Positions 2,015 through 44,642 of a stretch of DNA of 49,207 nucleotides are shown piece by piece. A model generated the notes under the pieces. It was not told the origin of the DNA and made no database searches. It was given only the letters and a program-made list of their open reading frames with translations. How positions within the stretch are numbered: position 1 is the stretch's first letter; every line of letters begins with the position of its first letter. The position numbers were made by a program, and so were the translations under genes. Source of the DNA: Burkholderiaceae bacterium (lineage in GTDB: Bacteria; Patescibacteriota; Saccharimonadia; Saccharimonadales; AQU-01); assembly GCA_043788365.1 (NCBI GenBank), contig JAYVTZ010000002.1, positions 1 to 49,207 of the forward strand, given 5' to 3'.

Positions 2015-3304
2015 TCAATTGTCAATAAGATGATGTTTATCCTTATTTTGTCTGAGTTGGCTAAGCAAATAGAATGAGCCAGTTACTAGCAACAGATTGT
2101 TATAGCCACTAACTAGTGCATTATACGCATCGTTTTGACTGGAAATTATTTCGTAGCTATCAAATCCTTTTATCCTGCAGAATTCTGCAATTATATCTGG
2201 GTCCGTTGCAGTTGCTGGCAAGTCCTGTGTTGTCTCGAAGGTGGTTAGAATCAATTTTTGACAGATTGGAAGTAACTCCTCAAGCACTCCTGGGTACTCT
2301 TTGCCTTGCTTGAGGCTAAGCAACACATCTGCTTTTTGGCCCGGATACTTTACCTTAAAACTCTCAACCAAAGCATGCATTTTTTGTTGATTATGGGCAC
2401 CATCCATTATCAAAGTTTTATTACTGATTTTTGTTGTGTCCATCCGACCTGGGACCAAAGTGTGCGAACTATGAATAATTTCTGACAAATTAACTACATG
2501 TAAACTGTCTCGCTTACAAACGAATTCAAATACATTTAACGCCAGGATAAAATTATGCTGTTGAAACAAAGGTAAATCATCAATTTCATGGCTAAATTCT
2601 GTCGCGCGGCTAACCTCATCTAATAGGTGTAGATCGGCGTCAAATTGATGACACCTTACTTCGATTGCACTCATGATTTCTGGAGATTGTTGATACATAA
2701 TGACTTGATTTGCCTTATGAATAATTCCCGCCTTTTGGGCGGCGATTTCAGTTAGCGAGTTACCTAAAATATTCATGTGGTCAAAACCGATGTCAGTGAT
2801 TACACAGACTTTGTCTTCACGGTTAGCTACATTAGTGCTGTCGTGCAGGCCACCTAGACCTGTCTCTATTACTGCATAGTCAACACCAACTTTGACAAAA
2901 ACCCAGTAGGCAAAAGCAATAATTAGCTCAAAATAAGTTGGTGTAATTTCACCAATCAGGTCAATAAACTCTCCTAGGTAAGCACATAAGTCATCATCAC
3001 TAATTGGTTGATCGTTAATTTGAATACGCTCAGTTACACTATCGACATGTGGTGAGACAGTTAGGCCCACTTTCGTGCCACTGGCATGTAAAAGCGAAGC
3101 GATGTAATAGGCTGTTGATGTCTTGCCACTTGTTCCGGCCAAATGGACTATTTTTAACTTTTGATGGGGATTACCAACTTTTTCTAGCAGCGGCATCATC
3201 CGAGCTAGAGTCATATTTTTGCCGGTAATCTCCTTTGACAATGGCACATAGCCCATCAGGATTTGGTTGGCTTCAGTAATATTAGAAATCGTCGGCATTG
3301 ACAA
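2015..3304 (-). CDS. folC: folylpolyglutamate synthase/dihydrofolate synthase-like Mur ligase family protein
   Basis: P-loop HLAGTSGKTST and C-terminal MDGAHN motif, both typical of the FolC/Mur ligase family. The track start at 3304 is TTG; an ATG two codons later (3298) is an alternative start. Confidence 0.7.
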   Translation of the reverse strand: MSMPTISNITEANQILMGYVPLSKEITGKNMTLARMMPLLEKVGNPHQKLKIVHLAGTSGKTSTAYYIASLLHASGTKVGLTVSPHVDSVTERIQINDQPISDDDLCAYLGEFIDLIGEITPTYFELIIAFAYWVFVKVGVDYAVIETGLGGLHDSTNVANREDKVCVITDIGFDHMNILGNSLTEIAAQKAGIIHKANQVIMYQQSPEIMSAIEVRCHQFDADLHLLDEVSRATEFSHEIDDLPLFQQHNFILALNVFEFVCKRDSLHVVNLSEIIHSSHTLVPGRMDTTKISNKTLIMDGAHNQQKMHALVESFKVKYPGQKADVLLSLKQGKEYPGVLEELLPICQKLILTTFETTQDLPATATDPDIIAEFCRIKGFDSYEIISSQNDAYNALVSGYNNLLLVTGSFYLLSQLRQNKDKHHLIDN

Positions 3305-3345: not shown

Positions 3346-5709
3346 CTATTTTTTAGATTTGCTGACGAAGCCTGCTGCATAGGCGGTAATGACATAACCG
3401 AGTATGCCAAGATAGAAGGAGTAGTTAATCCCGCCAAGTAATGAAACGAGCACTGCCAATACTGAGCCAGCCACTGAGGCTGCACCGTTTAAGCCCCAAA
3501 GCCATGGTTTAAGATCGTTAGATTTTTTAGATGCCCACCTCATTCCCATCGCAAACGGCATACCCATTAATAAACCTATAGGCAAAATGAAAATCATAGC
3601 TGAAATAACATGAGCGACAGTCCCCCACCGTGTGCCAAGAATGATAAATTTAGGTAAAATATAAACAAAAATTAATAAGATTAAACACAGCAAATAAACT
3701 CTTCTTCTTAGTGTTAGTCTGTTAAATATCGGCTTCTCACTCAACATGCTACCAATTCCACTTGCAGCTAGTATGCTAGGCAGAACTACGATTATAGAGA
3801 ACGCTGGATGACCAAAAAATATCGATAATCGTTGTAGTAGCCCTAGCTCAATACCCATAAACCCCAATCCAATACCTAGAAAATACACAGCCAAAGCTTT
3901 GTTCTCTTTATTAAGCAATTTTTTGCCGAATATATAAGGCACAACAAATACCAAGCCAACAACTGTTACTACAAACAAACTCATAGCGGCCAATAAACCT
4001 AAAGAACTTAGATTGTGGTATTTCCAGTTAAATGGTGTAGCCAAATCTTTGAAACGTATAAAGTTAAAGAAAAATGGTTGATTATCGGTCGGGGGTGAAA
4101 TATTACCTGGTACTAGACTGGCTGCCTTGCTTAAATTACCCTTGGCTAAATTTGAAATAACCGGATCGGCGGAACTAATATTTGGACTGGCCAATATTTT
4201 AAAACCGTACTTGTCAGATATAGTCTGAACTTTGTTTAGTACTGTTTGGTCAAATGGATTACGGCTTACGAGTATATTTGTTATGCCCCAGTACTGTGTG
4301 TTAGTGGGTTGAAATAATACCAGTGCGATATGCTTTTCAGGGTCCTTAATACCGATTTTCTTTAGTGCATCCTGAGCCAATGACACAGTACGATAGGTTT
4401 CAAACGGAACACCGGCTTTGCGCCATCTAGACACTGATAAAATGCCTTTGTCAGATAAACGATTAATAAATAACTGCCATGCTTCAGTCGTATACAGTGA
4501 GTTCTCTGAAATCGTATACCCACCGGCAGCAGTTGCTGCCCATGTGTCTATAAGAGAAATTTTGATAATATCGTATTTATTGGTGTGCCGAGTCAGGTAA
4601 CTTCGTGCTTCGTCATTAACAAATGTAACTCCTTTAACTCTATCTAAATGTCCGGTGTAGTCACTAAATCGTTTATTTACAGCCGAAATTATTTCATCAT
4701 TTAATTCAATTGCTTTTACCGAATTCGCTCCAGACGCTAAGGACGACAATACGTCTCTTCCCCCGCCTGCACCTACCACAGAAACATTTGCACCCGAAAT
4801 CAATTGGTCGGCCAAATTAGTCACATCACACTCGAGGAATTTATAGTGACTTGGAACTCCATCATATTTAGTTAAAATCGTACCGGCATCGCCATCAATT
4901 TGTAGCAATAACTGATCAACATCTCGCAATTGATCACAATTATCACTCAACCCCCACCCAAATGGGTCTTTTGAAAGATTGTCGTAAACAGCTACTCGTG
5001 AAAAGGTATTCCATTCTTCATAAATTGCAGACGCCTCTTTTCCGTGCTTACCATAGATCATTTTTAGCAGATGTTTATTGCTAGATGTGATTGAAAGCAA
5101 AGAAGCAAAAATAATCACGAGCACTAATGACATAGATAATAAAATTGGTTCTATCAACCTTCTAGTTGAATAGGCAAACATAAATGCACCTAATAAAGCT
5201 ATAAAGCAAGATACGAAAATAGCCGTTGGTCCGTCACTAAATTTTAGTGCGAATATTACCCCAAAACAACCGGTCGCGGCGCCTATTAAATCGGCACCAT
5301 AAATTGGTCCAATTGATTCTGTAAAAAATGTTAACGCAAGCGCTAGCACTACACCACTTGCAACAAAGGGTAAACTTACAAATAATATCGATGCTGCGCC
5401 AAACGGTATAAACATCAGAACCAACAATGCCGGAATGATTAATATGCCAAAATACATCGACCATCTAGCTAGAACTACCCTTTCACCAACTTTTGAAATA
5501 TAGGTTCGAAATCGATAGACCCCTATAGCACCAACCGTCATACCAAATAATGCTGCCGAAATTGCTACAAACGCAAAATGATACCAAACTATTACACTAA
5601 ATAATCGCGTCAACAAAAGTTCATACATCAAGGTTGCAAAAGATACGAAATAAACTCCTAAGTAATCAAATCTACCGGCAACCAATGACGTTATTTTATT
5701 TTTTACCAT
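3346..5709 (-). CDS. polytopic membrane protein with a central spermidine-synthase-like (class I SAM-fold) domain
   Basis: Multiple TM helices at both ends. The central soluble domain has VVGAGGGRDV, a glycine-rich nucleotide-binding motif. The architecture resembles fused membrane/aminopropyltransferase-like proteins. Confidence 0.55.
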   Translation of the reverse strand: MVKNKITSLVAGRFDYLGVYFVSFATLMYELLLTRLFSVIVWYHFAFVAISAALFGMTVGAIGVYRFRTYISKVGERVVLARWSMYFGILIIPALLVLMFIPFGAASILFVSLPFVASGVVLALALTFFTESIGPIYGADLIGAATGCFGVIFALKFSDGPTAIFVSCFIALLGAFMFAYSTRRLIEPILLSMSLVLVIIFASLLSITSSNKHLLKMIYGKHGKEASAIYEEWNTFSRVAVYDNLSKDPFGWGLSDNCDQLRDVDQLLLQIDGDAGTILTKYDGVPSHYKFLECDVTNLADQLISGANVSVVGAGGGRDVLSSLASGANSVKAIELNDEIISAVNKRFSDYTGHLDRVKGVTFVNDEARSYLTRHTNKYDIIKISLIDTWAATAAGGYTISENSLYTTEAWQLFINRLSDKGILSVSRWRKAGVPFETYRTVSLAQDALKKIGIKDPEKHIALVLFQPTNTQYWGITNILVSRNPFDQTVLNKVQTISDKYGFKILASPNISSADPVISNLAKGNLSKAASLVPGNISPPTDNQPFFFNFIRFKDLATPFNWKYHNLSSLGLLAAMSLFVVTVVGLVFVVPYIFGKKLLNKENKALAVYFLGIGLGFMGIELGLLQRLSIFFGHPAFSIIVVLPSILAASGIGSMLSEKPIFNRLTLRRRVYLLCLILLIFVYILPKFIILGTRWGTVAHVISAMIFILPIGLLMGMPFAMGMRWASKKSNDLKPWLWGLNGAASVAGSVLAVLVSLLGGINYSFYLGILGYVITAYAAGFVSKSKK

Positions 5710-5950
5710 AAATTCTTAACAATAAGCTTAACATTATTACGACTCAAAATTATATTTAATATTTTTTACTGGTCAGAGCGTCATATTCGTGCCGGTATTT
5801 CTTTTGACAGCGGGACTTAGTTCATCATGTTTTGGTTGGCTTTTTATATGTCTTTTATTACTGGCATGGCATGATTGTAACTGTTAATTTATAATAATCC
5901 GTGAATAATTTTTGCTATTTTTAATTAAAAGCTCTTGCTCGCTACTTGCA

Positions 5951-5986
5951 AATAAAAAAGATTCAGTTAGCCTGAATCTCTTTTAT
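5951..5986 (-). terminator. rho-independent terminator after tRNA-Arg(TCG)
   Basis: Minus strand reads AAAGAGATTCAG-GCTAA-CTGAATCTTTTTT immediately 3' of the tRNA. Confidence 0.55.
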
Positions 5987-6063
5987 TGGTGCGCCCGGAC
6001 GGATTCGAACCGCCGACTTTCTGTTCCGAAGACAGACGCTCTAATCCACTGAGCTACGGGCGC
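5987..6063 (-). tRNA. tRNA-Arg (anticodon TCG), CCA encoded
   Basis: Hand-folded cloverleaf: acceptor GCGCCCG/CGGGCGC, D arm GCTC..GAGC, anticodon stem TCTGT/ACAGA with loop CTTCGGA, T arm GGCGG-TTCGAAT-CCGTC, then ACCA. Confidence 0.9.
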
Positions 6064-6107
6064 AAACGCATTAACAGATTACCATACTTTAAGGTTGCTC
6101 GCGAAAC

Positions 6108-6833
6108 CTAATCGATTCGATAGTAGTGGCTAGAGAGTAGCTTTTTATATGGCTGCCAGACTTGTTTGGCTTTTTTATGTGTCAGTGTTGATAGCTTTAC
6201 TAGGATTAGGAGTAGCATGCTAAGTCCAGTACAAAGTAGGGCGGACAACAGCTTGTAGGTAACTCCATTTCCGGTGTCTATCAAGAGTACGAAAGACTCA
6301 GTTATGCTAAATAATACCAGCATGATAAACCACTCATTGCTAAAAACACGGTTATTCATTTGCAATGCAAAGTTAGTGCGGTTCATCTGATTAGCTACTA
6401 ACCTATCAAGCAGCTTGTCGATATCGTCTTGGTTCTCACCCTTATACTGGAGACAAAACGATATCAGCTCTTCATACATTACCTCTCCTTGTCCGGGTTT
6501 CTGCTCGCGAACAACTGATTGCATATAAGCTGTAAACTTATCTTGAATTTCATTTCTTAATGCTTTTGGTAATTTCTTGAGACCAATGACCATCGCAAAA
6601 ATAGCATTAGCTTCAGATCTAACGATTCGATGCAGCTCTTCTATTCTTGCCTTTTGACTACTTAATATTGGCGCGATATAAAAACCATACAAAAATGAGT
6701 TGACCGAAAATAGCGTCAATGCGCCGCTCGTAAACTTTACACTTGGCAATATTAAAAGCGCTAACCCGTAAATAATAAACAAAACTACAAAATATTGGGT
6801 TAACCTGATCTTTTCGAGCAAAAAGTGTTTCAT
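6108..6833 (-). CDS. hypothetical integral membrane protein
   Basis: ORF with N- and C-terminal TM helices flanking a charged helical middle. No motif recognised. Confidence 0.55.
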   Translation of the reverse strand: MKHFLLEKIRLTQYFVVLFIIYGLALLILPSVKFTSGALTLFSVNSFLYGFYIAPILSSQKARIEELHRIVRSEANAIFAMVIGLKKLPKALRNEIQDKFTAYMQSVVREQKPGQGEVMYEELISFCLQYKGENQDDIDKLLDRLVANQMNRTNFALQMNNRVFSNEWFIMLVLFSITESFVLLIDTGNGVTYKLLSALLCTGLSMLLLILVKLSTLTHKKAKQVWQPYKKLLSSHYYRID

Positions 6834-9019: not shown

Positions 9020-10299
9020 TTTGTATCACTCGGTAGAGGAAATTGCTTTGCGAAAACCGCAACCTCAGCTTTAATTTTATCTAGTGCCTTCTCGTCATTA
9101 CGAGAATTAATTGCACTCAGCATATGTTCTGCGACAAAGGCCATGTCTTTTTCCAATAATCCTCTAGTGGTTATGGCTGGCGTACCGAGCCTGAAGCCGC
9201 TTGGACGGAATGGTGGCAAAGTATCATCTGGGATTGCATTGCAATTACCGGTTAGTCCAACCCGGTCGAGTACGTCCTGGGTCACTCGCCCGTCGATATC
9301 AAAACTACGGTGCATATCAATCATTATTAAGTGATTGTCAGTGCCATTACTTACTAGTTTAAAACCACGACTCATTAGTTCGTCGGCTAGTTGCTTGGCA
9401 TTTTTTAGGACCTGCTGAGCGTAAACCTGGAAGCTTGGTTCGAGCGCTTCACCAAAAGCGACTGCCTTAGCAAGGGTATTATTCATGTGTGGCCCACCTT
9501 GGGTACCTGGGAATACTTCTCGGTCAATTAATGTCGGCAAGTTACCGATTGTATGTTCTGGCGCTTTCAAAGGGTTACCAACCGTGCCTTTACTCAATAT
9601 CAAGCCACCACGCGGGCCTCGCAGAGTCTTGTGAGTCGTGCTGGTAATGACATGAAAACCAAAGTCGAACGGATTGGGCAATGCCTTGCCGGCGATAAGT
9701 CCGGCTATATGGGCCATATCAGCCATTAACATCGCGCCAACTTCATTACCAATCGCAGCAAACTTAGCATAATCAAGCGAACGAGGATAACCGCTAAAAC
9801 CAGCAAGTAGTATTTTCGGTTTTTCCTTTAGAGCAACTTGACGCATTTCATCATAGTCAATCTCACCGGTCTCAACGTCTTTAACACCGTACCGTACAAA
9901 ATTATAGAGTTTTGCACTGGCGGTAACTGGTGCCCCGTGCGTTAGGTGACCGCCATGGTCAAGCCGCATAGCCATAACTGTGTCGCCTGGATTCAACCAA
10001 GCTTGATAAACGGCAATATTAGCTGGTGCACCGCTGTGTGCTTGCACGTTTGCGTGGTCAGAGCCAAACAACTTTTTAGCCCGATCGATAGCGATTGTCT
10101 CGACTTTGTCGGTGTTCTCTTGGCCGCCGTAGTAACGCCGGCCCGGATAACCCTCAGAGTACTTATTAGTGAATACGCTCCCTAATGCCTCTAAAACATC
10201 TCTGCTAACGTAATTCTCTGACGGTACAAGCTCTAGTCCCTGGCGTTGACGAGTTTCTTCAGCTTTTAGTAAATTATTCAAAACTTTATCATGCAACAT
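9016..10299 (-). CDS. glyA: serine hydroxymethyltransferase
   Basis: Full-length SHMT with the PLP-lysine motif TTHKTLRGPRGG and a conserved N-terminal VPSENY. Confidence 0.95.
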   Translation of the reverse strand: MLHDKVLNNLLKAEETRQRQGLELVPSENYVSRDVLEALGSVFTNKYSEGYPGRRYYGGQENTDKVETIAIDRAKKLFGSDHANVQAHSGAPANIAVYQAWLNPGDTVMAMRLDHGGHLTHGAPVTASAKLYNFVRYGVKDVETGEIDYDEMRQVALKEKPKILLAGFSGYPRSLDYAKFAAIGNEVGAMLMADMAHIAGLIAGKALPNPFDFGFHVITSTTHKTLRGPRGGLILSKGTVGNPLKAPEHTIGNLPTLIDREVFPGTQGGPHMNNTLAKAVAFGEALEPSFQVYAQQVLKNAKQLADELMSRGFKLVSNGTDNHLIMIDMHRSFDIDGRVTQDVLDRVGLTGNCNAIPDDTLPPFRPSGFRLGTPAITTRGLLEKDMAFVAEHMLSAINSRNDEKALDKIKAEVAVFAKQFPLPSDTK

Positions 10300-10448
10300 A
10301 TTTAAATCCTGTTCTTAGTTAGTGTTTATAAATAGTAGTTGCAGTTAATCAAATCATGCTTATATTGTATGCGCTATATGGTAAAAATAAAACCATTCTG
10401 GGCGTAGTAAAATTATACAAATAATTATCGACATGAATATACCCCGTG

Positions 10449-10457
10449 TGGTAAGAT
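10449..10457 (+). promoter_or_regulatory. extended -10 promoter candidate (TGgTAAGAT) giving a near-leaderless HTH-murA mRNA
   Basis: TGGTAAGAT ends 9 nt before the ATG at 10467, and there is no Shine-Dalgarno sequence in between. Confidence 0.35.
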
Positions 10458-10466
10458 TGCTTCACT

Positions 10467-11990
10467 ATGGATACAACAAACGAGAAAATTGGCCAACTTA
10501 TTTACCAAATTAGACAGGAAAAGGGCTTAACCCAAGCTGAATTCGCCCGCAAGCTTAAGACCAGCCAATCGGCTGTCAACCGTATTGAGCACGGCAAACA
10601 GAACCTTAGCCTAGAAACTCTAGGACGCATCAGTGACGTTTTAAACAAACAAATTATTAGTATTTCTGGCCAGACTGTAAATCTTAAAATCGAAGGTGGA
10701 CACGAACTAAAGGGTGAAATAACTCTTAAGACCAGCAAGAACGCCGCCGTTGGACTGTTATGTGCATCACTGCTAAACAAAGGCACGACTCGCCTAAAGA
10801 GCGTTGCCAGAATCGAAGAAGTTAATCGCATGATCGAAGTGCTGCGAAGCATTGGTGTTCAAATTAAGTGGCTACCTGGTAATGACCTCGAAATCAAACC
10901 ACCGGCAAAACTTGACCTCGACAAGATGGATAAGACTGCGGCACGCAAAACTCGTAGCGTTATTATGTTGATCGGGCCACTAATGCACCTATATAAAGAA
11001 TTTAAAATTCCTTATGCTGGCGGCTGTGAATTAGGCAAACGGACGGTCTTACCCCATTTATATGCTCTTGAGGAGCTTGGTGTCGATGTTCTAACTAAAA
11101 GTGGACATTACAATGTGACCGTTAAACGCCACCCAGCAAATCGCTCGATTGTACTTTACGAATCAGGCGACACGACAACTGAAAACGTGCTCATGGCAGC
11201 TTCACTGATCGAAGAAGAAACAGTTATTAAGATGGCGAGTGCTAACTACGCAATTCAAGACTTGTGTTTTTTCCTACAAAAACTTGGGGTCAAAATTGAA
11301 GGCATTGGAACCACAACATTGAGAGTTCAGGGCCTAAAGGAAATAAAAAAGAATGTTTCATTTGCACCGAGTGAAGACCCGGTCGAAGCCATGACATTTG
11401 TGGCAGCGGCCGTGACGACAAATTCTAAAATCACAATCCGCCGCGTACCGATTGAGTTTATGGAGCTCGAACTGTTAAAGTTAGAAAAAATGGGTTTAAA
11501 GTCTACGAGGACTGAAGTCTATAAGTCAGAAAATGGCAAAACTGACCTTATCGACCTTACTATTCACAAGCACAATCATCAGTTATCAGCACCAGAAGAC
11601 AAGCTCTACGGACGACCATTCCCAGGAATGAACATCGATAACCTGCCCTACTTCGTACCCATAGCAGCCGTTTCAAAGGGTCGCACCTTGATTCATGACT
11701 GGGTGTATGAAGACCGAGCGCTTATGTACACAGAGATCAAAAAAATTGGTGTTGATCTAGAGCTTGCCGACCCACACCGTGTCTTCATAAATGGACCAAC
11801 TCGTTGGCGATCGGCTGATATCGTAGCGCCTAGCGGGATTCGACCCGCCGTCATTCTGCTAATAGGCATGTTGGCCGGTAACGGAACCTCGATACTCCGC
11901 AACGTCTACACCATCAATCGCGGCTACGAAGACCTCGCCGAACGCCTAAACTCACTCGGCGCTCGTATTACTGTTATCCACGAAATATAA
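10467..11990 (+). CDS. murA: XRE HTH domain fused to UDP-N-acetylglucosamine 1-carboxyvinyltransferase
   Basis: Residues ~1-65 form an HTH_3 (LTQAEFARKLKTSQSAVNRIEHGKQ). The rest is a MurA/EPSP-synthase fold with the active-site loop YAGGCELGKR (catalytic Cys retained). Confidence 0.85.
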   Translation: MDTTNEKIGQLIYQIRQEKGLTQAEFARKLKTSQSAVNRIEHGKQNLSLETLGRISDVLNKQIISISGQTVNLKIEGGHELKGEITLKTSKNAAVGLLCASLLNKGTTRLKSVARIEEVNRMIEVLRSIGVQIKWLPGNDLEIKPPAKLDLDKMDKTAARKTRSVIMLIGPLMHLYKEFKIPYAGGCELGKRTVLPHLYALEELGVDVLTKSGHYNVTVKRHPANRSIVLYESGDTTTENVLMAASLIEEETVIKMASANYAIQDLCFFLQKLGVKIEGIGTTTLRVQGLKEIKKNVSFAPSEDPVEAMTFVAAAVTTNSKITIRRVPIEFMELELLKLEKMGLKSTRTEVYKSENGKTDLIDLTIHKHNHQLSAPEDKLYGRPFPGMNIDNLPYFVPIAAVSKGRTLIHDWVYEDRALMYTEIKKIGVDLELADPHRVFINGPTRWRSADIVAPSGIRPAVILLIGMLAGNGTSILRNVYTINRGYEDLAERLNSLGARITVIHEI

Positions 11991-18644: not shown

Positions 18645-18719
18645 GCGGGTGTCGTACAACGGCCAGTATATGAGTTTTCCAAACTCAGGACGAGGGTTCG
18701 ATTCCCTCCACCCGCACCA
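18645..18719 (+). tRNA. tRNA-Gly (anticodon TCC), CCA encoded
   Basis: Acceptor GCGGGTG/CACCCGC, anticodon stem TGAGT/ACTCA with loop TTTCCAA, T arm GAGGG-TTCGATT-CCCTC. Confidence 0.9.
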
Positions 18720-18730
18720 ACAATAGGTAT

Positions 18731-18807
18731 GCCCCGGTAGCTCAGCGGATTAGAGCAATGGGCTTCTATCCCACAGGTCGGGGGTTCGATTCCCTCCCGG
18801 GGTACCA
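18731..18807 (+). tRNA. tRNA-Arg (anticodon TCT), CCA encoded
   Basis: Acceptor GCCCCGG/CCGGGGT, D arm GCTC..GAGC, anticodon loop CTTCTAT (one A-C mismatch at the top of the stem), T arm GGGGG-TTCGATT-CCCTC. Confidence 0.85.
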
Positions 18808-18988
18808 ATATGAAAACGCTCAGCTTCAGCTGGGCTTTTTATATTGGTCATCTCTGGGCGGGAGGGAATCGAACGGGAATGTCCTAGCGGACATTCCCCG
18901 CCCTTGGTCCGGCAACTAGTTGCCGGATGGCTATGGCCAGAAGTAATTTTCTTTTGGCCAGCTAGGTCGATTCCCTCCCGGGGTACCA
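18808..18988 (+). repeat. structured module U1 ending in an exact 22-nt copy of the tRNA-Arg(TCT) 3' end
   Basis: Terminator hairpin, GGTCATCTCTGGGCGGGAGGGAATCGAAC, then hairpins at 18875-18898, 18908-18927 and 18934-18960, then TCGATTCCCTCCCGGGGTACCA (18967-18988). Homologous to 20041-20216. Confidence 0.8.
18813..18841 (+). terminator. rho-independent terminator after tRNA-Arg(TCT)
   Basis: GCTCAGC-TTCA-GCTGGGC followed by TTTTT. The outer stem extends to pair ACCAATATGAAAA (including the tRNA CCA end) with TTTTTATATTGGT. Confidence 0.65.
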
Positions 18989-19223
18989 AATTAAAAGACT
19001 CGCCGTAAGGTGGGTCTTTTGATTTGGTTACTTGAGTGTATTGATCCCCCGACCGCGACAGCTTGCTGGCGCAAGGTCGGGAGTTCGCTATTCAGTCTAA
19101 TGCCCGAGATTTATCTCGGCGCATAGATTGAATATACCCTAGTATTCCCTCCCGTCAGGCGATGACCATGCCCAAAAGTAATTTTCTTCTGGCCAGCCAG
19201 GTCGATTCCCGCTTGGTGTTCCA
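18989..19223 (+). repeat. module U3: second terminator hairpin, pseudo tRNA-Arg 3' half with an insertion in the T-loop, and a diverged tRNA 3'-end copy
   Basis: AAAAGACTCGCC-GTAA-GGTGGGTCTTTT hairpin. AAGGTCGGGAGTTCG (19073-19087) and ATTCCCTCCCG (19144-19154) are separated by a 56-nt palindromic insert. A TAATTTT-loop hairpin (19170-19194) is followed by GGTCGATTCCCGCTTGGTGTTCCA (19200-19223). Confidence 0.7.
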
Positions 19224-19310
19224 ATTCAACACATCAGATTGTTCTAGTTCGAGCATTTCAAGCTTTTGACTACTTGTATCTGTTATTTAGTTCGAATCTT
19301 AATTGCTCCG

Positions 19311-19319
19311 TGCTAAGAT
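19311..19319 (+). promoter_or_regulatory. extended -10 promoter candidate (TGcTAAGAT) giving a leaderless methyltransferase mRNA
   Basis: TGCTAAGAT ends 6 nt before the ATG at 19326. There is no SD. The element is the same type as the one upstream of HTH-murA. Confidence 0.35.
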
Positions 19320-19325
19320 GGGTGC

Positions 19326-20018
19326 ATGCGAAAACAAAAGCAAATTTGGCTTTCAGAACATACCAATCAGACGACCTTACCAACGATGGCAAATGTAGAG
19401 CCCGCTAGTGGGGTAGTGTTATTCACAGATTGGCTAAACGATAACGGGATTAATTTTGTGGGCAACGCTGTAGATATTGGCTCTGGTAAAGGTCGTAATA
19501 GCGTCCATCTGGCTAAGCTTGGTTACGAAGTGTGGGGTTTGGAATATATAGAGCTAGCAGTTGATTCAGCGAAACAGTTAGCAGACAAAAATGATGTTGG
19601 TAGCAAAGTTCACTTTGAAATTTGTGAAGTTGATTCTGGCTGGAAAATTGAAAATAATTTCTTCGACATCGCTATAGATTCGTTCTCCAGTATCGATATC
19701 GAAACAAAAGAAGGTCGTGAAAAATGTAGAGACGAGATGTACCGTACGCTCAAATCCGGTGGATATGCACTCGTAACTGTCTGCTCATCGGATGATGAGT
19801 GGGAAAAGGAACTCATTTCAAAACATCCAGGTCCAGAGCCTAATAGTACGATTTGGCCACAGAATGGTAAGTTTCAAAAAGACTACGACGAATTAGAACT
19901 TAGAGAATTTTATAAAAAGTTCGAAGCTGTTGATTTAAAGAAAATTAGCAAACCAGCCTTCAAGTTAGAACGCGAAGGTACGGCTACCAACTTGTGGCTT
20001 GTGCTACGCAAAAAATAG
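19326..20018 (+). CDS. class I SAM-dependent methyltransferase
   Basis: Motif I VDIGSGKGRNSVHLA, an acidic residue at the end of beta-2 (GLE), and the post-I/II pattern typical of small-molecule methyltransferases (TehB/UbiE-like). Confidence 0.75.
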   Translation: MRKQKQIWLSEHTNQTTLPTMANVEPASGVVLFTDWLNDNGINFVGNAVDIGSGKGRNSVHLAKLGYEVWGLEYIELAVDSAKQLADKNDVGSKVHFEICEVDSGWKIENNFFDIAIDSFSSIDIETKEGREKCRDEMYRTLKSGGYALVTVCSSDDEWEKELISKHPGPEPNSTIWPQNGKFQKDYDELELREFYKKFEAVDLKKISKPAFKLEREGTATNLWLVLRKK

Positions 20019-20040
20019 TTCTAACCTCTGCAAGAATACT

Positions 20041-20216
20041 GTACCAATATGAAAACTCTCAGCTTTAGCTGGGCTTTTTATATTGGTCATCTCTTGGCGG
20101 GAGGGAATCGAACGGGAATGCATCAGCATGCATTCCCCGCCCTTGGCTTTTCAGCTGTGCCGAAAAGTTGTCATGGACGAATATAATTTTTATTCGTTCG
20201 ACAAGGTCGATTCCCT
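20041..20216 (+). repeat. structured module U2 (paralog of U1), starting with GTACCA and ending with a truncated tRNA-Arg T-arm copy
   Basis: The first ~80 nt are nearly identical to 18802-18881 (3 differences seen). The hairpins at 20114-20137, 20147-20167 and 20175-20199 have different sequences but the same positions. Ends with GGTCGATTCCCT (20205-20216). Confidence 0.8.
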
Positions 20217-20271
20217 TATTCTATAAAAATCCGACACGGATTGAGACAATATTCACTCTCAAAATAAAAAG

Positions 20272-20300
20272 TTGTTAAACTGCCCGTTTTAAGTTATAAT
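20272..20300 (+). promoter_or_regulatory. sigma70 promoter for the tRNA-His cassette
   Basis: TTGTTA (20272-20277), a 17-nt spacer, then TATAAT (20295-20300). Confidence 0.6.
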
Positions 20301-20447
20301 CACCCCTGTTCTTATTGTCTATTGTCTTATCCGAAATCACGAGAGGATTCGTGATTTCGAGAGGAGGAAGCTTTGTGGGGTTACTAATTTTGCGGAGCAA
20401 ATTTATTTTGTCGGCGAAATAGTAACTGCACAATTACATTCCGACGA
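20301..20447 (+). promoter_or_regulatory. conserved structured 5' leader of tRNA-His
   Basis: Hairpin GAAATCACG-AGAGGATT-CGTGATTTC (20333-20358), GAGAGGAGGAAGCTTTGT, the long-range stem GTTACTA/TAGTAAC, and the 17-mer ACAATTACATTCCGACG (20430-20446). Homologous to 28581-28778. Confidence 0.7.
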
Positions 20448-20525
20448 GGCGAGCTTAGCTCAGTTGGTTAGAGCGCCGGGTTGTGGTTCCGGAGGTCGTG
20501 GGTTCAATTCCCATAGTTCGCCCCA
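20448..20525 (+). tRNA. tRNA-His (anticodon GTG) with encoded G-1 and CCA
   Basis: G-1 then acceptor GCGAGCT/AGTTCGC, discriminator C, anticodon stem CCGGG/TCCGG with loop TTGTGGT, T arm GTGGG-TTCAATT-CCCAT. Confidence 0.9.
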
Positions 20526-20528
20526 TAT

Positions 20529-20555
20529 TAAAAAGTCTCACACAGTGAGGCTTTT
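20529..20555 (+). terminator. rho-independent terminator after tRNA-His
   Basis: AAAAAGTCTCAC-ACA-GTGAGGCTTTTT. The outer stem pairs GCCCCATATT (the tRNA 3' end) with AATATGGGC. Confidence 0.65.
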
Positions 20556-20705
20556 TAATATGGGCAAGCTCGTGGCATGGACTTCCACGACACGAGAGCT
20601 TTAGCTCACGTTAGTCGTGGCAATCAATAATTAGTCTTAGCCCCATAGCTCCAACGGAGCGGGCGGCTGGATTAATTTCACGCCGGTATTCCATAGTTCG
20701 CCCCA
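20556..20705 (+). other. tRNA-His trailer module ending in a duplicated tRNA-His 3' end
   Basis: Structured stretch, conserved AGCGGGCGGCTGGATTAAT (20658-20676), then ATTCCATAGTTCGCCCCA (20688-20705), compared with the tRNA's ATTCCCATAGTTCGCCCCA. Confidence 0.7.
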
Positions 20706-20708
20706 TTT

Positions 20709-20735
20709 AAAAAGTCTCAGAAAGTGAGGCTTTTT
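20709..20735. terminator. second terminator hairpin (near-copy of 20529-20555), also placed to terminate the convergent oxidoreductase gene
   Basis: AAAAAGTCTCAG-AAA-GTGAGGCTTTTT, lying 19 nt from the stop of 20754..21692. Confidence 0.6.
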
Positions 20736-20753
20736 AAATTTTAGACAACGTGA

Positions 20754-28551: not shown

Positions 28552-28580
28552 TATACAACAGAGGTATAAGTTGCTATAAT
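28552..28580 (+). promoter_or_regulatory. sigma70 promoter for the tRNA-Pro cassette
   Basis: TATAAT (28575-28580) with a weak -35 TATACA 17 nt upstream. The sequence downstream of the -10 aligns with the tRNA-His cassette (CCCTGTTC...). Confidence 0.5.
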
Positions 28581-28778
28581 AGCCCTGTTCAAATATCTTT
28601 TGTCCTATCCAATTTTGCGAGAGGATTCGCAAAATCATCAGGAAAAAGCTTTCTTGTTTTTCCGAAATTGAGAGAGGATTCTCAATTTCGAGAGGAGGAA
28701 TCTTTGTATGGTTTATAGTATTGTTGGTCAAACTTGTTTTGCCAACAATACAGAAACCATACAATTACATTCCGACGC
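28581..28778 (+). promoter_or_regulatory. conserved structured 5' leader of tRNA-Pro (two hairpin modules)
   Basis: Hairpins ATTTTGCG-AGAGGATT-CGCAAAAT (28612-28635) and GAAATTGAG-AGAGGATT-CTCAATTTC (28664-28689). GAGAGGAGGAATCTTTGT. Nested perfect stems at 28706-28714/28754-28762 and 28718-28727/28742-28751. The 17-mer ACAATTACATTCCGACG (28761-28777). Confidence 0.7.
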
Positions 28779-28854
28779 CGGGGTGTGGCGCAGTTGGTAG
28801 CGCGCGCGGTTTGGGACCGCGAGGTCGAAGGTTCGAGCCCTTTCACCCCGACCA
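28779..28854 (+). tRNA. tRNA-Pro (anticodon TGG), CCA encoded
   Basis: Acceptor CGGGGTG/CACCCCG, D arm GCGC..GCGC, anticodon stem CGCGG/CCGCG with loop TTTGGGA, T arm GAAGG-TTCGAGC-CCTTT. Confidence 0.9.
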
Positions 28855-28862
28855 TATAAAAA

Positions 28863-28885
28863 GGCCCACGAAAGTGGGCTTTTTT
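28863..28885 (+). terminator. rho-independent terminator after tRNA-Pro
   Basis: GCCCAC-GAAA-GTGGGC followed by TTTTTT. The extended stem pairs CCGACCATATAAAAAG (the tRNA 3' end) with TTTTTTATATGGTCGG. Confidence 0.65.
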
Positions 28886-29025
28886 ATATGGTCGGTGACG
28901 AGCTCCTACTTTCGACCCAAGATTTTTTGCCCTGCAAAAAAGACGGAAGGTCGAAGGTTCGGTCATCAGTCACAGGCCCCAGCGTAGCGGGCGCCTGGAT
29001 TGATGTGCGCATGCCCTTTCTCCCC
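28886..29025 (+). other. tRNA-Pro trailer module: pseudo tRNA-Pro 3' half split in the T-loop
   Basis: AGGTCGAAGGTTCG (28948-28961, identical to 28822-28835), a 51-nt insert containing AGCGGGCGCCTGGATTGAT (28986-29004), then GCCCTTTCTCCCC (29013-29025), compared with the tRNA's GCCCTTTCACCCC. Confidence 0.7.
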
Positions 29026-29030
29026 AAAAC

Positions 29031-29204
29031 TTACCAAGCGTAAATGCGACTCTCGGCCTCCGGGACTTGAATCACCTTTATGCCAATCGACTCCAAACTA
29101 AATCTGGGCAGAGAAGCCACGGTCATTGGTCGCCCGTCTTGAGCCTCAACTGTCGGTGTTGCCTTGGTAGTTTCGATATGTTGTAGTTCAGAATTTTGAA
29201 TCAT
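29031..29204 (-). CDS. possible 57-aa small protein (not in the ORF track)
   Basis: My translation: MIQNSELQHIETTKATPTVEAQDGRPMTVASLPRFSLESIGIKVIQVPEAESRIYAW. GAGAGG lies 5 nt upstream of the ATG. No family recognised. Confidence 0.3.
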   Translation of the reverse strand: MIQNSELQHIETTKATPTVEAQDGRPMTVASLPRFSLESIGIKVIQVPEAESRIYAW

Positions 29205-29278
29205 TTAGGCCTCTCATTTAAGAAGTTAATATGTTTATCAGGACGGAACTTTCACGAAATTTATGCTAAGATTAGCTT

Positions 29279-29803
29279 ATGAAAATCATCTTGCTTGACC
29301 GTGACGGAACCGTTGTTGTCGACCCACCTGACGAGCGAGTCGATAGTTTAGACAAAGTCACCTTCTTCCCAGACGTCCCACAGGCACTTAAGCTACTATC
29401 AGATAACGATTACGGGGTCATATTCGTTACAAATCAAGCAGGCATTGCAGAAGGCAGAATGACAGAAGAAGAAGCCTGGAAGATAAACCGTAAAGTTATA
29501 AGACTATTAAAACCTTCGGGCGTACAAATACTGAAAACATATATGTGCCCTCACATACCTAAAGACCGTTGTATTTGCCGTAAACCCCACCCAACAATGA
29601 TCCAATGGGCAACAGAAGATTTTGACTTCGAACCAAGTGATGTCTACTTTATTGGTGACCGTACAACTGATGTTATGGCCGGCAAAAGCGCTGGCACGAA
29701 AACTATCCAAGTTGAAACCGGTAATGGCAACCTACGCGCCGAAAACGCTGACCATATTGCCCCTACCCTGCTCGATGCAGTCAAGTATGTAATTAGTCAC
29801 TGA
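29279..29803 (+). CDS. gmhB: HAD-IIIA phosphatase (D,D-heptose 1,7-bisphosphate phosphatase/histidinol-phosphatase family)
   Basis: LLDRDGT (DxDGT), TNQAGI, the zinc-site-like CxC in CICRKPHP, and IGDRTTD. Confidence 0.6.
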   Translation: MKIILLDRDGTVVVDPPDERVDSLDKVTFFPDVPQALKLLSDNDYGVIFVTNQAGIAEGRMTEEEAWKINRKVIRLLKPSGVQILKTYMCPHIPKDRCICRKPHPTMIQWATEDFDFEPSDVYFIGDRTTDVMAGKSAGTKTIQVETGNGNLRAENADHIAPTLLDAVKYVISH

Positions 29804-30275
29804 ACTTGTGGCCAGCATTTTTTCTGTTGGTAAGCTTTATCTGCACTGCATAGGCTAGACCGCAAGCCGCAACTAGAGCCGCGTTTTCACTCAAGCCACT
29901 TATATCAACATATTCGCCATCATTATTCATAAAAGATATATGAGTCTCATTTCTGGTCGTCAAAAGATCTATGCGTGCAATTGGTGAACTAGCTTCTAGG
30001 ACTCTATTTGAATCACCAACAAGAACGTGCGTAGCCGGTATTTCGACCAAACTAGTGGCTTGTAATAACTCGTCTGGCACTAGATTAACTGTGGTTATTG
30101 CGGGCAACCTCTTAGACACCCCAGGATGGTGATTTAAAAATATAGTTGGATCACTTCTTAGTGGATCGTAGGGCGCGCTTGTCAAATAGTCGTAATCCGT
30201 CAGCTCTGGAATCTTGGCATCACGAAGTGCTCTTAATACTCCGTGTTGGCCGTGATCCATCTCAAATTGTGGCAT
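29793..30275 (-). CDS. hypothetical protein
   Basis: 160-aa ORF in a compact gene array. No motif recognised. Confidence 0.5.
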   Translation of the reverse strand: MPQFEMDHGQHGVLRALRDAKIPELTDYDYLTSAPYDPLRSDPTIFLNHHPGVSKRLPAITTVNLVPDELLQATSLVEIPATHVLVGDSNRVLEASSPIARIDLLTTRNETHISFMNNDGEYVDISGLSENAALVAACGLAYAVQIKLTNRKNAGHKFSD

Positions 30276-38738: not shown

Positions 38739-40553
38739 ATGCGTATATCTGATGCTCTGGTGGAAAAACTGTTAAAAACGGCTGGTAAAGTTACCGACGA
38801 ACAGTTTGCGACCCTCCAAGAACAAGAGAAATCTGAGAAAAAACCACTTCAAGACCTAGCTATTAAGAACAACATTATACCTGAGAAAGACCTAACTAAA
38901 CTCTACGCTGCTGAAGCTGATGTGCCGTTTATCGAACTTAATACTAAGGAAATTAAACGTGAAGTCCTGAAGCTTATCCCTGAACGTATTGCTCGTCAGT
39001 ATAAAGTAGTCCTATTCGGCGTCGAAGACGATGGCAGCAAACAGTTGGCCATGGAAGACCCAGATGATATTCAGGCGATTAACTTCTTACAGAAACAACT
39101 TGGTACTGACCTAAAAGTACACATTGCTACCGAATCGAACATTCAGGCTGCGCTCGACCAGTACCGTGGCAATATTAGTAACGAGCTAACTAAGGTCATC
39201 TCACCAGATAGCGAACTAGCCGAAGAAGAAGAGGAAATCAGCGAAGAAGACCTGGCCGAGGATTCGCCAATCGCCCAAACCGTTAATTTGATCATTGAAT
39301 ATGGTGTGAAATCAGGTGCCAGCGATATCCATATCGAACCGAGAGAAAATTATGTACTAATCCGTTACCGTGTGGACGGGGTGCTTAGAGAGGCGAACAA
39401 ATTACCTAAGAAGGTCTTAGGAGCTCTAGTGTCGCGTATTAAGATTTTGTCTAATCTAAAGATTGATGAACGTAGATCACCTCAAGACGGACGTTTTAAG
39501 GTTGAAGTTAGTGGTGCAGTCTTTGCCCTGCGTGTTTCAACCCTGCCAATCGTCGATGGCGAAAAGGTTGTTATGCGTATTTTGAATGAATCAGCCAAGG
39601 CGGCTACGTTAGAGGAGTTGGGCTACTGGGGCATCGCACTCAAGAATGTCAACAAAGCTATAGTCCAACCTCACGGCATGATACTTGTTACCGGTCCAAC
39701 TGGTTCAGGTAAATCAACTAGTCTTTTCAGCGTACTGAGCATGCTCAACAAGCCAATGGTCAATATATCCACAGTTGAGGACCCCGTCGAATATAGAATC
39801 CCGGGTACTAATCAGACTCAAGTTAACCCAACCGCTGGCATGACCTTTGTTAATGGCTTAAGAGCTCTCCTGCGCCAAGACCCAAACATCATCATGGTTG
39901 GTGAGATTCGTGACTCAGAAACCGCTAACTTAGGTGTCCAAGCCGCCCTTACCGGTCACCTTGTCTTCTCTACTCTCCACACTAATAACGCTGCAACCTG
40001 TTTACCGCGTTTGCTCGATATGGGCATTGAACCGTTTTTGATTGCCAGCACCGTTCGAGCTATTGTTGGTCAAAGATTAGTTCGACGTCTTTGTGTCGAT
40101 TGCCGAGAAGTCTATACACCTGATGCACCAGTCCTAAAGCAAATTGCCGAAATATTCAAGACAGACGAGGCAGCCGTGATGAAACAGATCCATGCCCTTG
40201 AAGAGGAAGCCTTGGAAGGTGGTATCGGTAAAGCCAACACTTCCAAAATTAATAAAGAATCACCTGAGGAACTTAGCACTACAGAAACTAGAATCACCAA
40301 ACTGTGGCGGGTTCATGAAGGTGGTTGTGATACTTGTGGACACATGGGCTATAAGGGGCGTATGGGAATTTATGAAGTACTTGGTAGTTCGGCCAAAATA
40401 CAAGAATTAATTGTCAGCAATGCGACAAGCGAAGTCATCCAAGATCAGGCAATTAAAGACGGCATGGTAATTATGCAGATTGATGGGTTTATTAAGGCAC
40501 TGCGCGGCCAAACCACGATAGAAGAAATTCTGCGCGTAACGGCGGAGAAATAG
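38739..40553 (+). CDS. pilB: type IV pilus assembly ATPase PilB (GspE family)
   Basis: N-terminal T2SSE_N domain, Walker A GPTGSGKST, Asp/His boxes, and C-terminal tetracysteine CVDC...CDTC. Confidence 0.9.
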   Translation: MRISDALVEKLLKTAGKVTDEQFATLQEQEKSEKKPLQDLAIKNNIIPEKDLTKLYAAEADVPFIELNTKEIKREVLKLIPERIARQYKVVLFGVEDDGSKQLAMEDPDDIQAINFLQKQLGTDLKVHIATESNIQAALDQYRGNISNELTKVISPDSELAEEEEEISEEDLAEDSPIAQTVNLIIEYGVKSGASDIHIEPRENYVLIRYRVDGVLREANKLPKKVLGALVSRIKILSNLKIDERRSPQDGRFKVEVSGAVFALRVSTLPIVDGEKVVMRILNESAKAATLEELGYWGIALKNVNKAIVQPHGMILVTGPTGSGKSTSLFSVLSMLNKPMVNISTVEDPVEYRIPGTNQTQVNPTAGMTFVNGLRALLRQDPNIIMVGEIRDSETANLGVQAALTGHLVFSTLHTNNAATCLPRLLDMGIEPFLIASTVRAIVGQRLVRRLCVDCREVYTPDAPVLKQIAEIFKTDEAAVMKQIHALEEEALEGGIGKANTSKINKESPEELSTTETRITKLWRVHEGGCDTCGHMGYKGRMGIYEVLGSSAKIQELIVSNATSEVIQDQAIKDGMVIMQIDGFIKALRGQTTIEEILRVTAEK

Positions 40554-40567
40554 TATATGAGTCTAAT

Positions 40568-40646
40568 GTCGAAAGTCGAAAGTCGAAAGCTTAACACAAT
40601 TATTGTTCGAGACCAGCTTTTAGAGTTAGACTTTCAGACTTTTGAC
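40568..40646 (+). repeat. heptamer tandem repeat and its imperfect inverted copy in the pilB-pilC spacer
   Basis: GTCGAAA x3 (40568-40588). GACTTTCAGACTTTTGAC (40629-40646) is its imperfect reverse complement, so the two can form a long stem-loop. Confidence 0.7.
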
Positions 40647-40668
40647 CTAAAATCCGAAGGATTTGCAG

Positions 40669-41889: not shown

Positions 41890-41905
41890 AATAGGGGCGC
41901 TACAA

Positions 41906-43137: not shown

Positions 43138-43139
43138 AC

Positions 43140-44564: not shown

Positions 44565-44642
44565 GATGAACATTGGTATCTGTTCCAGACTAGATTTGTG
44601 CTATAGTTATCATATAAAGTTCTTTTGCTTTGATGGGCAAGC

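Follow-up and report, generated by a model that had tools for sequence, protein, structure and literature searches.

Conserved hairpins within displaced tRNA 3' ends of Saccharibacteria: candidate remnants of a cassette system behind tRNA genes

The tRNA-His and tRNA-Pro trailers

The stretch of DNA analyzed here, hereafter the window, comprises 49,207 nucleotides of contig JAYVTZ010000002.1 and carries five tRNA genes, called by ARAGORN with Rfam in agreement. Behind the genes for tRNA-His and tRNA-Pro lie trailers in which a partial copy of the cognate tRNA is interrupted, at its T-loop, by a hairpin, and it is this hairpin and the tRNA-derived unit around it that concern us. After the CCA of the tRNA, a unit consists of an intrinsic terminator; A', in which the acceptor 3' strand and T-arm are copied imperfectly and in inverted orientation; a variable hairpin, which differs in sequence among units and forms a clean hairpin in every one; as fourth element, a repeat of the tRNA from the variable loop through the T-stem 5' strand to TTCG; the insert hairpin, with stems P1 and P2; a tail of GTGCGC plus 1-3 nt; and a copy of the T-stem 3' and acceptor 3' strands, to which CCA and a second terminator are added in some units only. 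The terminator palindrome extends on one side into the tRNA end and on the other into the complement of that end (arms at 20522-20541/20545-20564 for His, 28848-28869/28874-28895 for Pro and 18804-18816/18836-18848 for tRNA-Arg). In the following lines, R1 denotes a covariance model of the insert alone, which was run on 395 kb of window and related contigs, and L numbers denote related loci.

20449-20525, + strand: functional tRNA-His(GTG) gene, 5' of the trailer (ARAGORN; Rfam tRNA, 64.9 bits)
20530-20563, + strand: terminator 1 after tRNA-His, its palindrome reaching the CCCA of the tRNA (inverted repeat of 20 nt, 95% complementary)
20561-20589, + strand: His A', with inverted imperfect CCA and acceptor 3' strand (TGGGCAAGCT), then a mirrored T-arm-like hairpin, CGTGG..CCACG (fold; inverted repeat of 20528-20570 with 20695-20737)
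20592-20611, + strand: His variable hairpin (ACGAGAGC-TTTA-GCTCACGT), in the same position as variable-sequence hairpins elsewhere (fold; comparison of units)
20612-20628, + strand: degenerate tRNA-His variable loop, T-stem 5' strand and start of the T-loop (TAGTCGTGGCAATCAAT; sequence reading, alignment row)
20629-20687, + strand: His insert hairpin, a type B variant, with a 19-mer at 20658-20676, P1 AATTAGTC/GGATTAATT and P2 AGCCCC/GGGCGGCT (R1 at 20627-20683, 49.4 bits, E 6e-10; pair counts)
20688-20705, + strand: direct copy of the tRNA-His 3' end (3' part of the T-loop, T-stem 3', acceptor 3', CCA) with one C deleted (direct repeat)
20709-20742, + strand: His terminator 2, near-identical to terminator 1 (direct repeat, 94%)
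28779-28854, + strand: tRNA-Pro(TGG) gene (ARAGORN; Rfam)
28858-28917, + strand: Pro terminator (28858-28891) and A' (28889-28917) (inverted repeat of 22 nt, 95%)
28920-28943, + strand: Pro variable hairpin (TTTTTTGC-CCT-GCAAAAAA) (fold; sequence unlike that of the same-place hairpin in the orthologous units of L045 and L040)
28948-28961, + strand: exact copy of the tRNA-Pro variable loop, T-stem 5' strand and TTCG (AGGTCGAAGGTTCG; direct repeat, 100%)
28962-29012, + strand: Pro insert hairpin, type B, with the 19-mer at 28986-29004 and tail GTGCGC (R1 at 28962-29010, 75.4 bits; pair counts)
29013-29025, + strand: decayed tRNA-Pro T-stem 3' strand and start of the acceptor (GCCCTTTCtCCCC; direct repeat, 92%)

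The coordinates given in the original prediction for both trailers and for the 19-mer all match on re-examination. In the His trailer, 15 nt (20691-20705) are identical to the tRNA 3' end, the match extending to 18 nt from 20688 with one C deletion, and the terminator is duplicated (20528-20558 versus 20707-20737, 94% identity). The Pro palindrome spans CCGACCA and TGGTCGG, and the 3' terminus of the Pro A' (CTTTCGACC) complements GGTCGAAG. The 5' side of the Pro T-arm is duplicated exactly, as had been proposed, and the segment at 29013-29025 copies GCCCTTTCACCCC with one mismatch; these two pieces lie 51 nt apart. The view of the trailer as the 3' part of a tRNA whose T-loop contains an insertion is supported. 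The Pro unit has neither CCA nor a second terminator after its 3' copy. A derivation of the variable hairpin from the anticodon arm was considered and rejected, its sequence fitting no cognate anticodon stem.

The palindromic layout of the units bears on a reading that we consider improbable, in which they arose neutrally, as replication by-products: template switching of the snap-back kind, first at the terminator hairpin and next at a second one, would have generated a direct-inverted-direct triplication of the tRNA 3' end that later decayed. Consistent with this, a long palindrome centered on the terminator loop is made up of the tRNA 3' end, the terminator and A', a second one is made up of A', the variable hairpin and the T-stem 5' copy, and the apical hairpins are perfect yet unit-specific in sequence, as if each had been born as a palindrome. 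Such an origin, however, leaves unexplained the presence of a conserved, covarying 50-nt hairpin at one T-loop position behind six tRNAs and in many species, the fixed length of the tail between the hairpin and the T-stem 3' strand, and the location of cassette junctions, described below, exactly at the tRNA-end core.

The 19-mer shared by the two trailers, AGCGGGCGSCTGGATTRAT, occurs twice in the window (20658-20676 and 28986-29004), with no further copy at up to three mismatches; the shuffle expectation is 0.02 copies, and two copies were attained in 0 of 100 shuffles. It takes in the P2 3' strand and most of the P1 3' strand and constitutes the 3' half of a hairpin of about 50 nt. Hence, two details of the original prediction have to be revised: CTGGATTRAT, which had been drawn as a loop, forms the 3' side of both stems, P2 and P1, and GCCCCA, which had been taken as mere preceding sequence, is the 5' strand of P2. 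In an alignment of 22 distinct copies, with pairs counted for the structure read from that alignment, P1 (CATYAGTC/GGATTRATG) comprises 8 bp, an invariant G.T among them, and P2 (AGSC-CCC/GGG-C-GSCT) contains a bulged C. Pairing is found in 98.2% of cells and five pairs are changed on both sides; the observed pairing score was reached by none of 500 shuffles and every slid control collapsed. Pair 22-62 is G.U in all 22 copies and this pair, like the other wobbles, lies on the tRNA-sense strand, so that, if either strand folds, it should be the sense strand. A common frame, GTCATYAGT...GATTRATGTGCRC, and a GGCGC bulge motif unite insert types A, A2 and B, which differ in their apical parts; types C and E are built on other stems. 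A hammerhead ribozyme, considered for the CTGATGA box of the minus strand, was discarded, given that the G is replaced in CATTA variants and the position covaries as a stem.

The same structural evidence enters into an alternative that we hold to be unlikely, namely that the unit is a structured, tRNA-mimicking RNA, arising from terminator read-through or as the 3' end of a cassette mRNA, trimmed to the CCA by tRNA-processing enzymes and serving as decoy, stabilizer or sensor. The extent of pairing, the two-sided changes, the shuffle result and the sense-strand wobbles, with their invariant G.U, all suit such an RNA; moreover, the His and Arg units fold into cloverleaf-like structures whose closing helix ends in CCA (-55 and -82 kcal/mol), and a terminator lies 3' of the His unit, of Arg unit 1 and of many tRNA-fMet units. 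On the other hand, Rfam 15 (including the tRNA clan, tmRNA, YrlA and ribozymes) gave nothing above noise over the trailers at E values up to 10, only the five tRNAs passing the gathering threshold. Furthermore, A' begins directly at the T-tract of a strong terminator, leaving no promoter space, the Pro acceptor copy is decayed, CCA is absent from many units and the unit T-stem is often mismatched (GATGG or CATGG forms). For these reasons, and because unit number and type differ among close relatives and the units are located at cassette junctions of arrays, the stand-alone functional tRNA mimic entertained in the original prediction is not favored here.

Distribution, turnover and cassette arrays

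A scan of species-representative genomes (one genome per species) yielded 24 loci, 10 of which are true homologues, all of them tRNA trailers in Saccharibacteria metagenome-assembled genomes (MAGs), one of which is mislabeled as Myxococcaceae; the other 14 are chance matches in coding regions, mostly of high-GC bacteria, and are close to the number estimated for chance. In a metagenome scan, nine of the 11 loci are true, again Saccharibacteria tRNA trailers and all low-GC. L003 (JBAXMC010000191.1), filed as a Myxococcaceae MAG, is near-identical to the Saccharibacteria tRNA-fMet loci L019 and L041 and is probably a binning contaminant. The motif is thus present in at least 19 independent Saccharibacteria contigs, which speaks against a 19-mer confined to two trailers born of one recent duplication, and a tabulation of the tRNAs that bear such trailers lists six: Pro, fMet, Gln, Asn, His and Arg-TCT. 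The proposal that one conserved element adjoins cores of different tRNAs therefore holds for six isoacceptors, and a single tRNA-specific integrase is a poorer explanation for it than a system that reads generic tRNA features. Three scans of IMG/VR viral contigs, with an 18-mer, the type A motif and the T-loop/hairpin junction, retrieved no true copy of the hairpin, and a phage attP origin was accordingly rejected, the scans having returned either nothing or chance matches in high-GC coding DNA. We found no description of the hairpin units in the literature on tRNA-linked islands or recombinases of Saccharibacteria and Patescibacteria, and their distinctive feature, a conserved structured element embedded in a displaced T-arm, is apparently undescribed.

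The covariance model R1 matched 33 times in the 395 kb, and 33 of 33 matches fall within displaced tRNA 3' fragments (in the window, only at 28962-29010, 20627-20683 and 19087-19139). This leaves without support the suggestion of an element that inserts into T-loops generally, and it weighs on a related reading, to which we assign a low probability, of the hairpin as a miniature non-autonomous mobile element that targets T-loops and survives only in displaced, non-essential tRNA fragments, this being the structure-guided element imagined earlier. Such an element would be in line with the single insertion point, after GGTTCG, in copies of different tRNAs, with the resemblance of P1 to short terminal inverted repeats and with the occurrence of hairpin types A, A2, B, C and E all in one position. 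It is contradicted by the lack of a target-site duplication, T-loop positions 58-60 being replaced rather than kept, by the lack of any uninterrupted displaced T-arm beside an interrupted one of the same unit type, by some cassettes that have the hairpin at their end and no T-stem 5' copy, and by the lack of a transposase associated with the hairpin. A derivative of a miniature inverted-repeat transposable element or of an insertion sequence was discarded on the evidence of the missing target-site duplication and the tRNA-fragment context of all R1 matches.

Comparison of orthologous tRNA loci reveals both turnover and constraint. L040 is syntenic with positions 20.6-33 kb of the window, and the His and Pro units are orthologously placed in the two species; their terminators, A' and variable hairpins have diverged or been replaced, whereas the insert is nearly identical, an observation that also suits a structured RNA. 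Conversely, the window and L045 share an orthologous A' and carry inserts of type B and type A, respectively. Relatives have one to three units behind tRNA-Pro, of types A, B and C and in differing order, plus partial units: B alone in the window, B and a partial B in L040, A and B in L021, and B, C and A in L036. Homogenization of units with their tRNA was ruled out in L042, where the unit T-stem reads CTAGG/CCTGG and that of the tRNA GCAGG/CCTGT. The tandem and truncated copies, the block replacement of apical hairpins (types A and B) and the variation in unit number, type and presence between relatives tell against a tRNA mimic, and the mixture of constraint and turnover is in keeping with repeated sites subject to use, exchange and loss, and suits a single conserved RNA gene less well.

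There is no cargo between the repeats of the His and Pro units, while one cassette interrupts the tRNA-Arg(TCT) array of the window and related arrays carry cargo. In the tRNA-fMet arrays (L007, L019, L041, L042 and L043), this takes the form of runs of co-oriented one- or two-gene cassettes, whose products include, from Pfam assignments, a short-chain dehydrogenase, an aldo-keto reductase, P-loop kinases, a histidine phosphatase and membrane proteins. At the end of nearly every cassette of these arrays stands a conserved non-coding stretch of about 80 nt, ...GGTTCCAATTCGAATGTACTTGG|GCTACCA, with a terminator behind it. Hairpin units are scattered between the cassettes, and single fMet arrays contain the same whole unit, identical terminator included, two to three times. 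The junctions of the cassettes coincide exactly with the last 5-7 nt of the tRNA. An aldo-keto reductase cassette common to L041 and L043, for instance, has different left neighbors, and the two sequences are identical exactly from GGGCTACCA on. Behind tRNA-Gln of L014, two small-ORF (open reading frame) cassettes, each ending in ..GG|TAGCCA and a terminator, precede a hairpin unit. These ends indicate that the members of an array are 'CCA-to-CCA' units, each starting after a tRNA-type 3' end and regenerating one. In addition, the DUF805 cassette of L039 and L045 has the 3' end ...GTATTAGTC-hairpin-GATTRATGTGCGC-CCCTTTCA and no T-stem 5' copy, the point of divergence between the two loci falling inside its insert hairpin, so that a cargo cassette can evidently end in the hairpin.

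Many cassettes open with a T-loop-like box and an extended -10-like box just 5' of the start codon, an arrangement in which the displaced T-loop box may also serve a cassette promoter as its -35 region. Cassette starts in L007, L019, L041 and L043 (e.g. L041, oriented 3060-3100) show GGTTCGAGTCYTNNYTGG and then TTGTTTGGTATGAT, with an ATG within about 15 nt. Clustering of 122 ORFs from 21 loci identified no protein that recurs across arrays of different tRNAs. A recurrent recombinase adjoining the arrays was rejected on this basis, the Pfam cargo being metabolic or accessory only. No tyrosine recombinase turned up in the scanned proteins (nearly all window ORFs plus the cargo of L039, L041 and L007).

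The array behind tRNA-Arg(TCT), which the original prediction did not list, brings cassette and units together within the window, with three units and one gene cassette. Its features, preceded by the other two tRNA genes of the window, are as follows.

5987-6063, - strand: tRNA-Arg-TCG gene (ARAGORN; Rfam agrees)
18645-18719: tRNA-Gly gene (ARAGORN; Rfam agrees)
18731-18807, + strand: tRNA-Arg(TCT) gene (ARAGORN; Rfam agrees)
18808-18988, + strand: Arg unit 1, with terminator, A' (18845-18874, including a perfect 16-nt inverted T-arm copy), three hairpins and the copy TCGATTCCCTCCCGGGGTACCA (18967-18988) (fold, -82 kcal/mol; repeats)
18989-19223, + strand: Arg unit 2, with terminator, A', variable hairpin, T-stem 5' copy, mixed A/C insert hairpin (19088-19146), T-stem 3' copy, a further hairpin and a divergent 3'-end copy (R1 at 19087-19139, 41 bits, E 1e-7)
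19224-20046, + strand: methyltransferase cassette, with ORF 19326-20018, left end with T-loop-like and extended -10-like boxes (19289-19319) and right end AGTTCTA..CTG|TACCA (20017-20046) (Pfam; sequence)
20047-20221, + strand: Arg unit 3, matching unit 1 at 91% over 106 nt, with truncated 3'-end copy (direct repeat)

The cassette gene, between units 2 and 3, encodes a class I S-adenosylmethionine-dependent methyltransferase. Arg unit 1 is predicted to fold into a four-way junction (-82 kcal/mol), and its hairpin stems show compensatory changes with respect to those of unit 3 (18808-18988 versus 20047-20221; GTCC/GGAC versus GCAT/ATGC). Arg-type units are built on a different scaffold, comprising A', three hairpins and AGGTCG|ATTCCCTCCC... 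The A' of units 1 and 3 (18845-18869 and 20084-20108) complements a variant end, ATTCCCTCCCG-TCAGGCGATG-ACCA, and not the end of the tRNA itself. This variant end is present in sense orientation in unit 2 (19144-19168), which suggests that the inverted copies were made from units and not from the gene.

Elsewhere, the window is ordinary low-GC chromosome, with murB, glyA, RNase Y, recA, ruvB and type IV pilus genes (the latter at 38739-45704). The stretch at 29032-29803, between the Pro unit and a conserved 160-aa gene (29793-30275, - strand), contains a 57-codon minus-strand ORF and a HAD-phosphatase gene (29279-29803), and neither is found at the corresponding place of L040; it may represent further array content, though no tRNA-type end was seen there. 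The leaders of tRNA-His and tRNA-Pro (20301-20448 and 28581-28778), which gave no Rfam match, are 70-80% alike and have in common a stretch of about 115 nt upstream of the tRNA. They follow sigma-70-like boxes (20272-20300 and 28552-28580) and contain a hairpin whose loop, GAGGAT, is conserved and whose stem shows compensatory changes (CACGA/TCGTG in one leader versus TTGAGA/TCTCAA in the other), then GAGAGGAGGAA, a second hairpin and finally ACAATTACATTCCGACG, which abuts the tRNA. A similar spacer, composed of a hairpin plus CAGAGGAGGGA, separates tRNAs in L056.

Serine recombinase islands and recombination at tRNA ends

A scan of nearly all window ORFs detected no recombinase, reverse transcriptase or transposase gene in the 49 kb, so any enzyme acting on the units must do so in trans. 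A diversity-generating retroelement was rejected, since the copies have no adenine-specific differences and no reverse transcriptase is present, and a reverse-transcriptase (retron) non-coding RNA was dismissed for want of a nearby reverse transcriptase gene. No gene for an IS110-family recombinase, examined with an IS110-type bridge RNA in mind, was detected in the window or among the scanned proteins of related loci.

In L039, by contrast with these results for the window, a 3.9-kb island separates tRNA-Pro from the first hairpin unit and encodes a large serine recombinase (LSR) of about 600 aa with Resolvase and Recombinase domains, whose gene (4372-6264) extends into the 3' end of the tRNA. 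Its family counts 784 homologues at E < 1e-20, from Saccharibacteria wherever named, and five further loci were fetched through these homologues, independently of the motif. The LSR gene abuts the tRNA 3' end at six loci (tRNA-Pro in L039, L047, L048, L050 and L052, tRNA-Gln in L053), and the LSR genes in L039 and in L047-L057 (near 10001-11890) have their 3' end antisense into tRNA-Pro or tRNA-Gln. The islands measure 3-6.4 kb, and their cargo is of defense type, with genes of AAA_15/OLD-TOPRIM, ThsB-TIR and restriction-modification type. Units are found after the native terminator in L048 and L052 and are absent in L047 and L050. To the right of the right island junction in L048 and L052, after the native tRNA-Pro terminator, the units have the same architecture and an unrelated, longer insert (type E), indicating that the architecture is more general than the 19-mer family.

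The far island junction at the six loci consists of GGTTCRA, 17 nt and |CGACCA (or |CAGCCA), so that box and junction are 24 nt apart, versus 19 nt in the tRNA. In known LSR sites, the zinc-ribbon-domain (ZD) motif lies at half-site positions 16-24 in attP and 11-19 in attB, a shift of 5 bp (Rutherford et al., PMC3783163). The difference between 24 and 19 nt equals this ZD shift, and the geometry of island and tRNA hence matches that of attP and attB. The same increment of five is seen in the fMet cassettes (23 versus 18 nt), in the Gln cassettes of L014 (25 versus 20) and in the methyltransferase cassette of the window (25 versus 20), and on these spacings we take the cassettes for putative products, or remnants, of integration by serine recombinases at tRNA ends.

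Taking this evidence together, we consider it rather probable, by a modest measure, that the His, Pro and three Arg-TCT units are cargo-less units or remnants of a Saccharibacteria-wide system of cassettes at tRNA 3' ends, and the tRNA-end copies are most likely recombination sites rather than parts of a working tRNA mimic. In such a system, units and cassettes would enter by recombination at the last 5-7 nt (NNNCCA) of the tRNA gene or of the tRNA-type end of an earlier unit, and insertions would stack directly behind the tRNA. The incoming DNA would bring a new NCCA and a replacement terminator and push the old tRNA end rightward, the end of a unit then being an attR-like displaced T-arm and acceptor 3' strand. 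The hairpin, whose tail is of fixed length, would be part of the recombination arm beside the crossover, at constant distance from the T-stem 3' strand; it could be common to different tRNAs because recognition would rest on generic features of tRNA genes, that is, the T-loop box and its distance to the CCA. RecA-dependent exchange between direct repeats of 20-55 nt could contribute, aided by natural competence, for which the window has its pilus genes. We infer mobility, or origin, of the hairpin units by site-specific recombination, and likewise an active form of the hairpin that is either folded single-stranded sense DNA or a palindromic duplex site.

Several observations weigh against this interpretation. 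The GGATTRA box of the hairpin units lies 27 nt from the junction in Pro and fMet, whereas the attP position of the LSR is 24 or 23; the candidate role of the hairpin box as the distal motif of a serine recombinase was rejected on account of this unfit spacing, and any link between LSRs and hairpin units is thus indirect. None of the loci examined has a hairpin unit in excised form or with an enzyme of its own, and A' and the adjoining variable hairpin are not predicted by any standard att site. The covariation, the invariant G.T on the sense strand and the near-identity of the hairpin across diverged flanks also suit a structured RNA, and the 20-55-nt direct repeats could permit RecA-dependent gain and loss with no site-specific enzyme. 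Finally, most loci were fetched through the motif itself, which biases the frequencies of their contexts.

A more speculative extension, which we advance with considerable reserve, is that Saccharibacteria possess a tRNA-anchored, integron-like platform in which a trans-acting recombinase captures small accessory cassettes, each with a folded hairpin site at its end, and empty units like those of the window at the CCA end of tRNA genes, the hairpin being a recognition structure that mimics the T-arm and acceptor and is usable at any tRNA. In a bolder variant, the cognate sense and antisense segments that flank conserved hairpins may serve as an RNA guide for recombination. Saccharibacteria are tiny parasitic bacteria with genomes of about 1 Mb, few recognized mobile elements and strain-variable gene content. 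If the units are recombination sites, the stretches behind a few tRNA genes would be the main entry points for accessory and defense genes in the phylum, through a system that reads the universal shape of the end of a tRNA gene and not one sequence, and a concrete, testable model of gene flow would be available for a group of organisms that can now be transformed in the laboratory. The target geometry of LSRs at tRNA ends is, moreover, readable from sequence. If the units are RNAs instead, they would constitute a new class of tRNA-derived structured RNA.

Comparison with known systems

With tmRNA, YrlA and mascRNA-type RNAs, the units have in common a T-arm-like and acceptor-like 3' part that ends in CCA and a possible cloverleaf-like fold; they differ in having no match to these Rfam models beyond noise, a T-loop destroyed by the insertion and no promoter of their own. 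Their likeness to integrons lies in the arrays of co-oriented, mostly single-gene accessory cassettes and, as regards attC sites, in an imperfect palindrome at the 3' end of the cassettes, of variable length, with a conserved outer base and a variable apical part; in addition, the inverted ends would pair into the recombination point and the wobbles mark one folding strand. In contrast to integrons, the GTTRRRY/RYYYAAC core is absent from unit ends and there is neither an IntI-type tyrosine recombinase among the scanned proteins nor an attI-Pc platform. The anchor is a tRNA gene, the folding strand is the sense strand of the cassettes and these apparently have promoters and terminators of their own.

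The sites of LSRs such as the LI/A118, Bxb1 and phiC31 integrases (PMC3783163) are approached through the LSR gene at the tRNA 3' end in six related loci, through the spacings of 24 and 19 nt, which reproduce the 5-bp shift between attP and attB, and through the methyltransferase cassette of the window, which has the same geometry; from these spacings, cassette ends would behave like attR sites of an LSR. The hairpin units depart from such sites in the 27-nt position of their GGATTRA and in the lack of an LSR gene in the window, and known LSR sites are duplexes of 40-50 bp that, unlike the hairpin units, have no long hairpins or inverted copies of the target.

As for remnants of att sites in general, direct tRNA 3' copies are present downstream of the intact gene (His, Pro and Arg, 18967-18988, among others), while an integrase within the flanked segment is lacking in the 49-kb window and is present only in the separate LSR islands at related loci. 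We group the units with remnants of integration at tRNA ends. The nearest known kind of system is that of genomic islands arrayed in tandem at tRNA genes and bordered by partial copies of the tRNA, as in the tycheposons of Prochlorococcus (bioRxiv 10.1101/2020.12.28.424599). Most units described here differ from these in having no integrase and many in having no cargo at all (130-190 bp), and also in the conserved, covarying hairpin in the T-loop of the partial copy, in the inverted copy of the same tRNA end that precedes it and in the use of one arm sequence for different tRNAs. What they have in common with tycheposons is a full tRNA followed by one or more direct partial 3' copies, successive insertions that were apparently shifted away from the tRNA, cargo between the copies, degenerate remnants and the use of several tRNAs as anchors.

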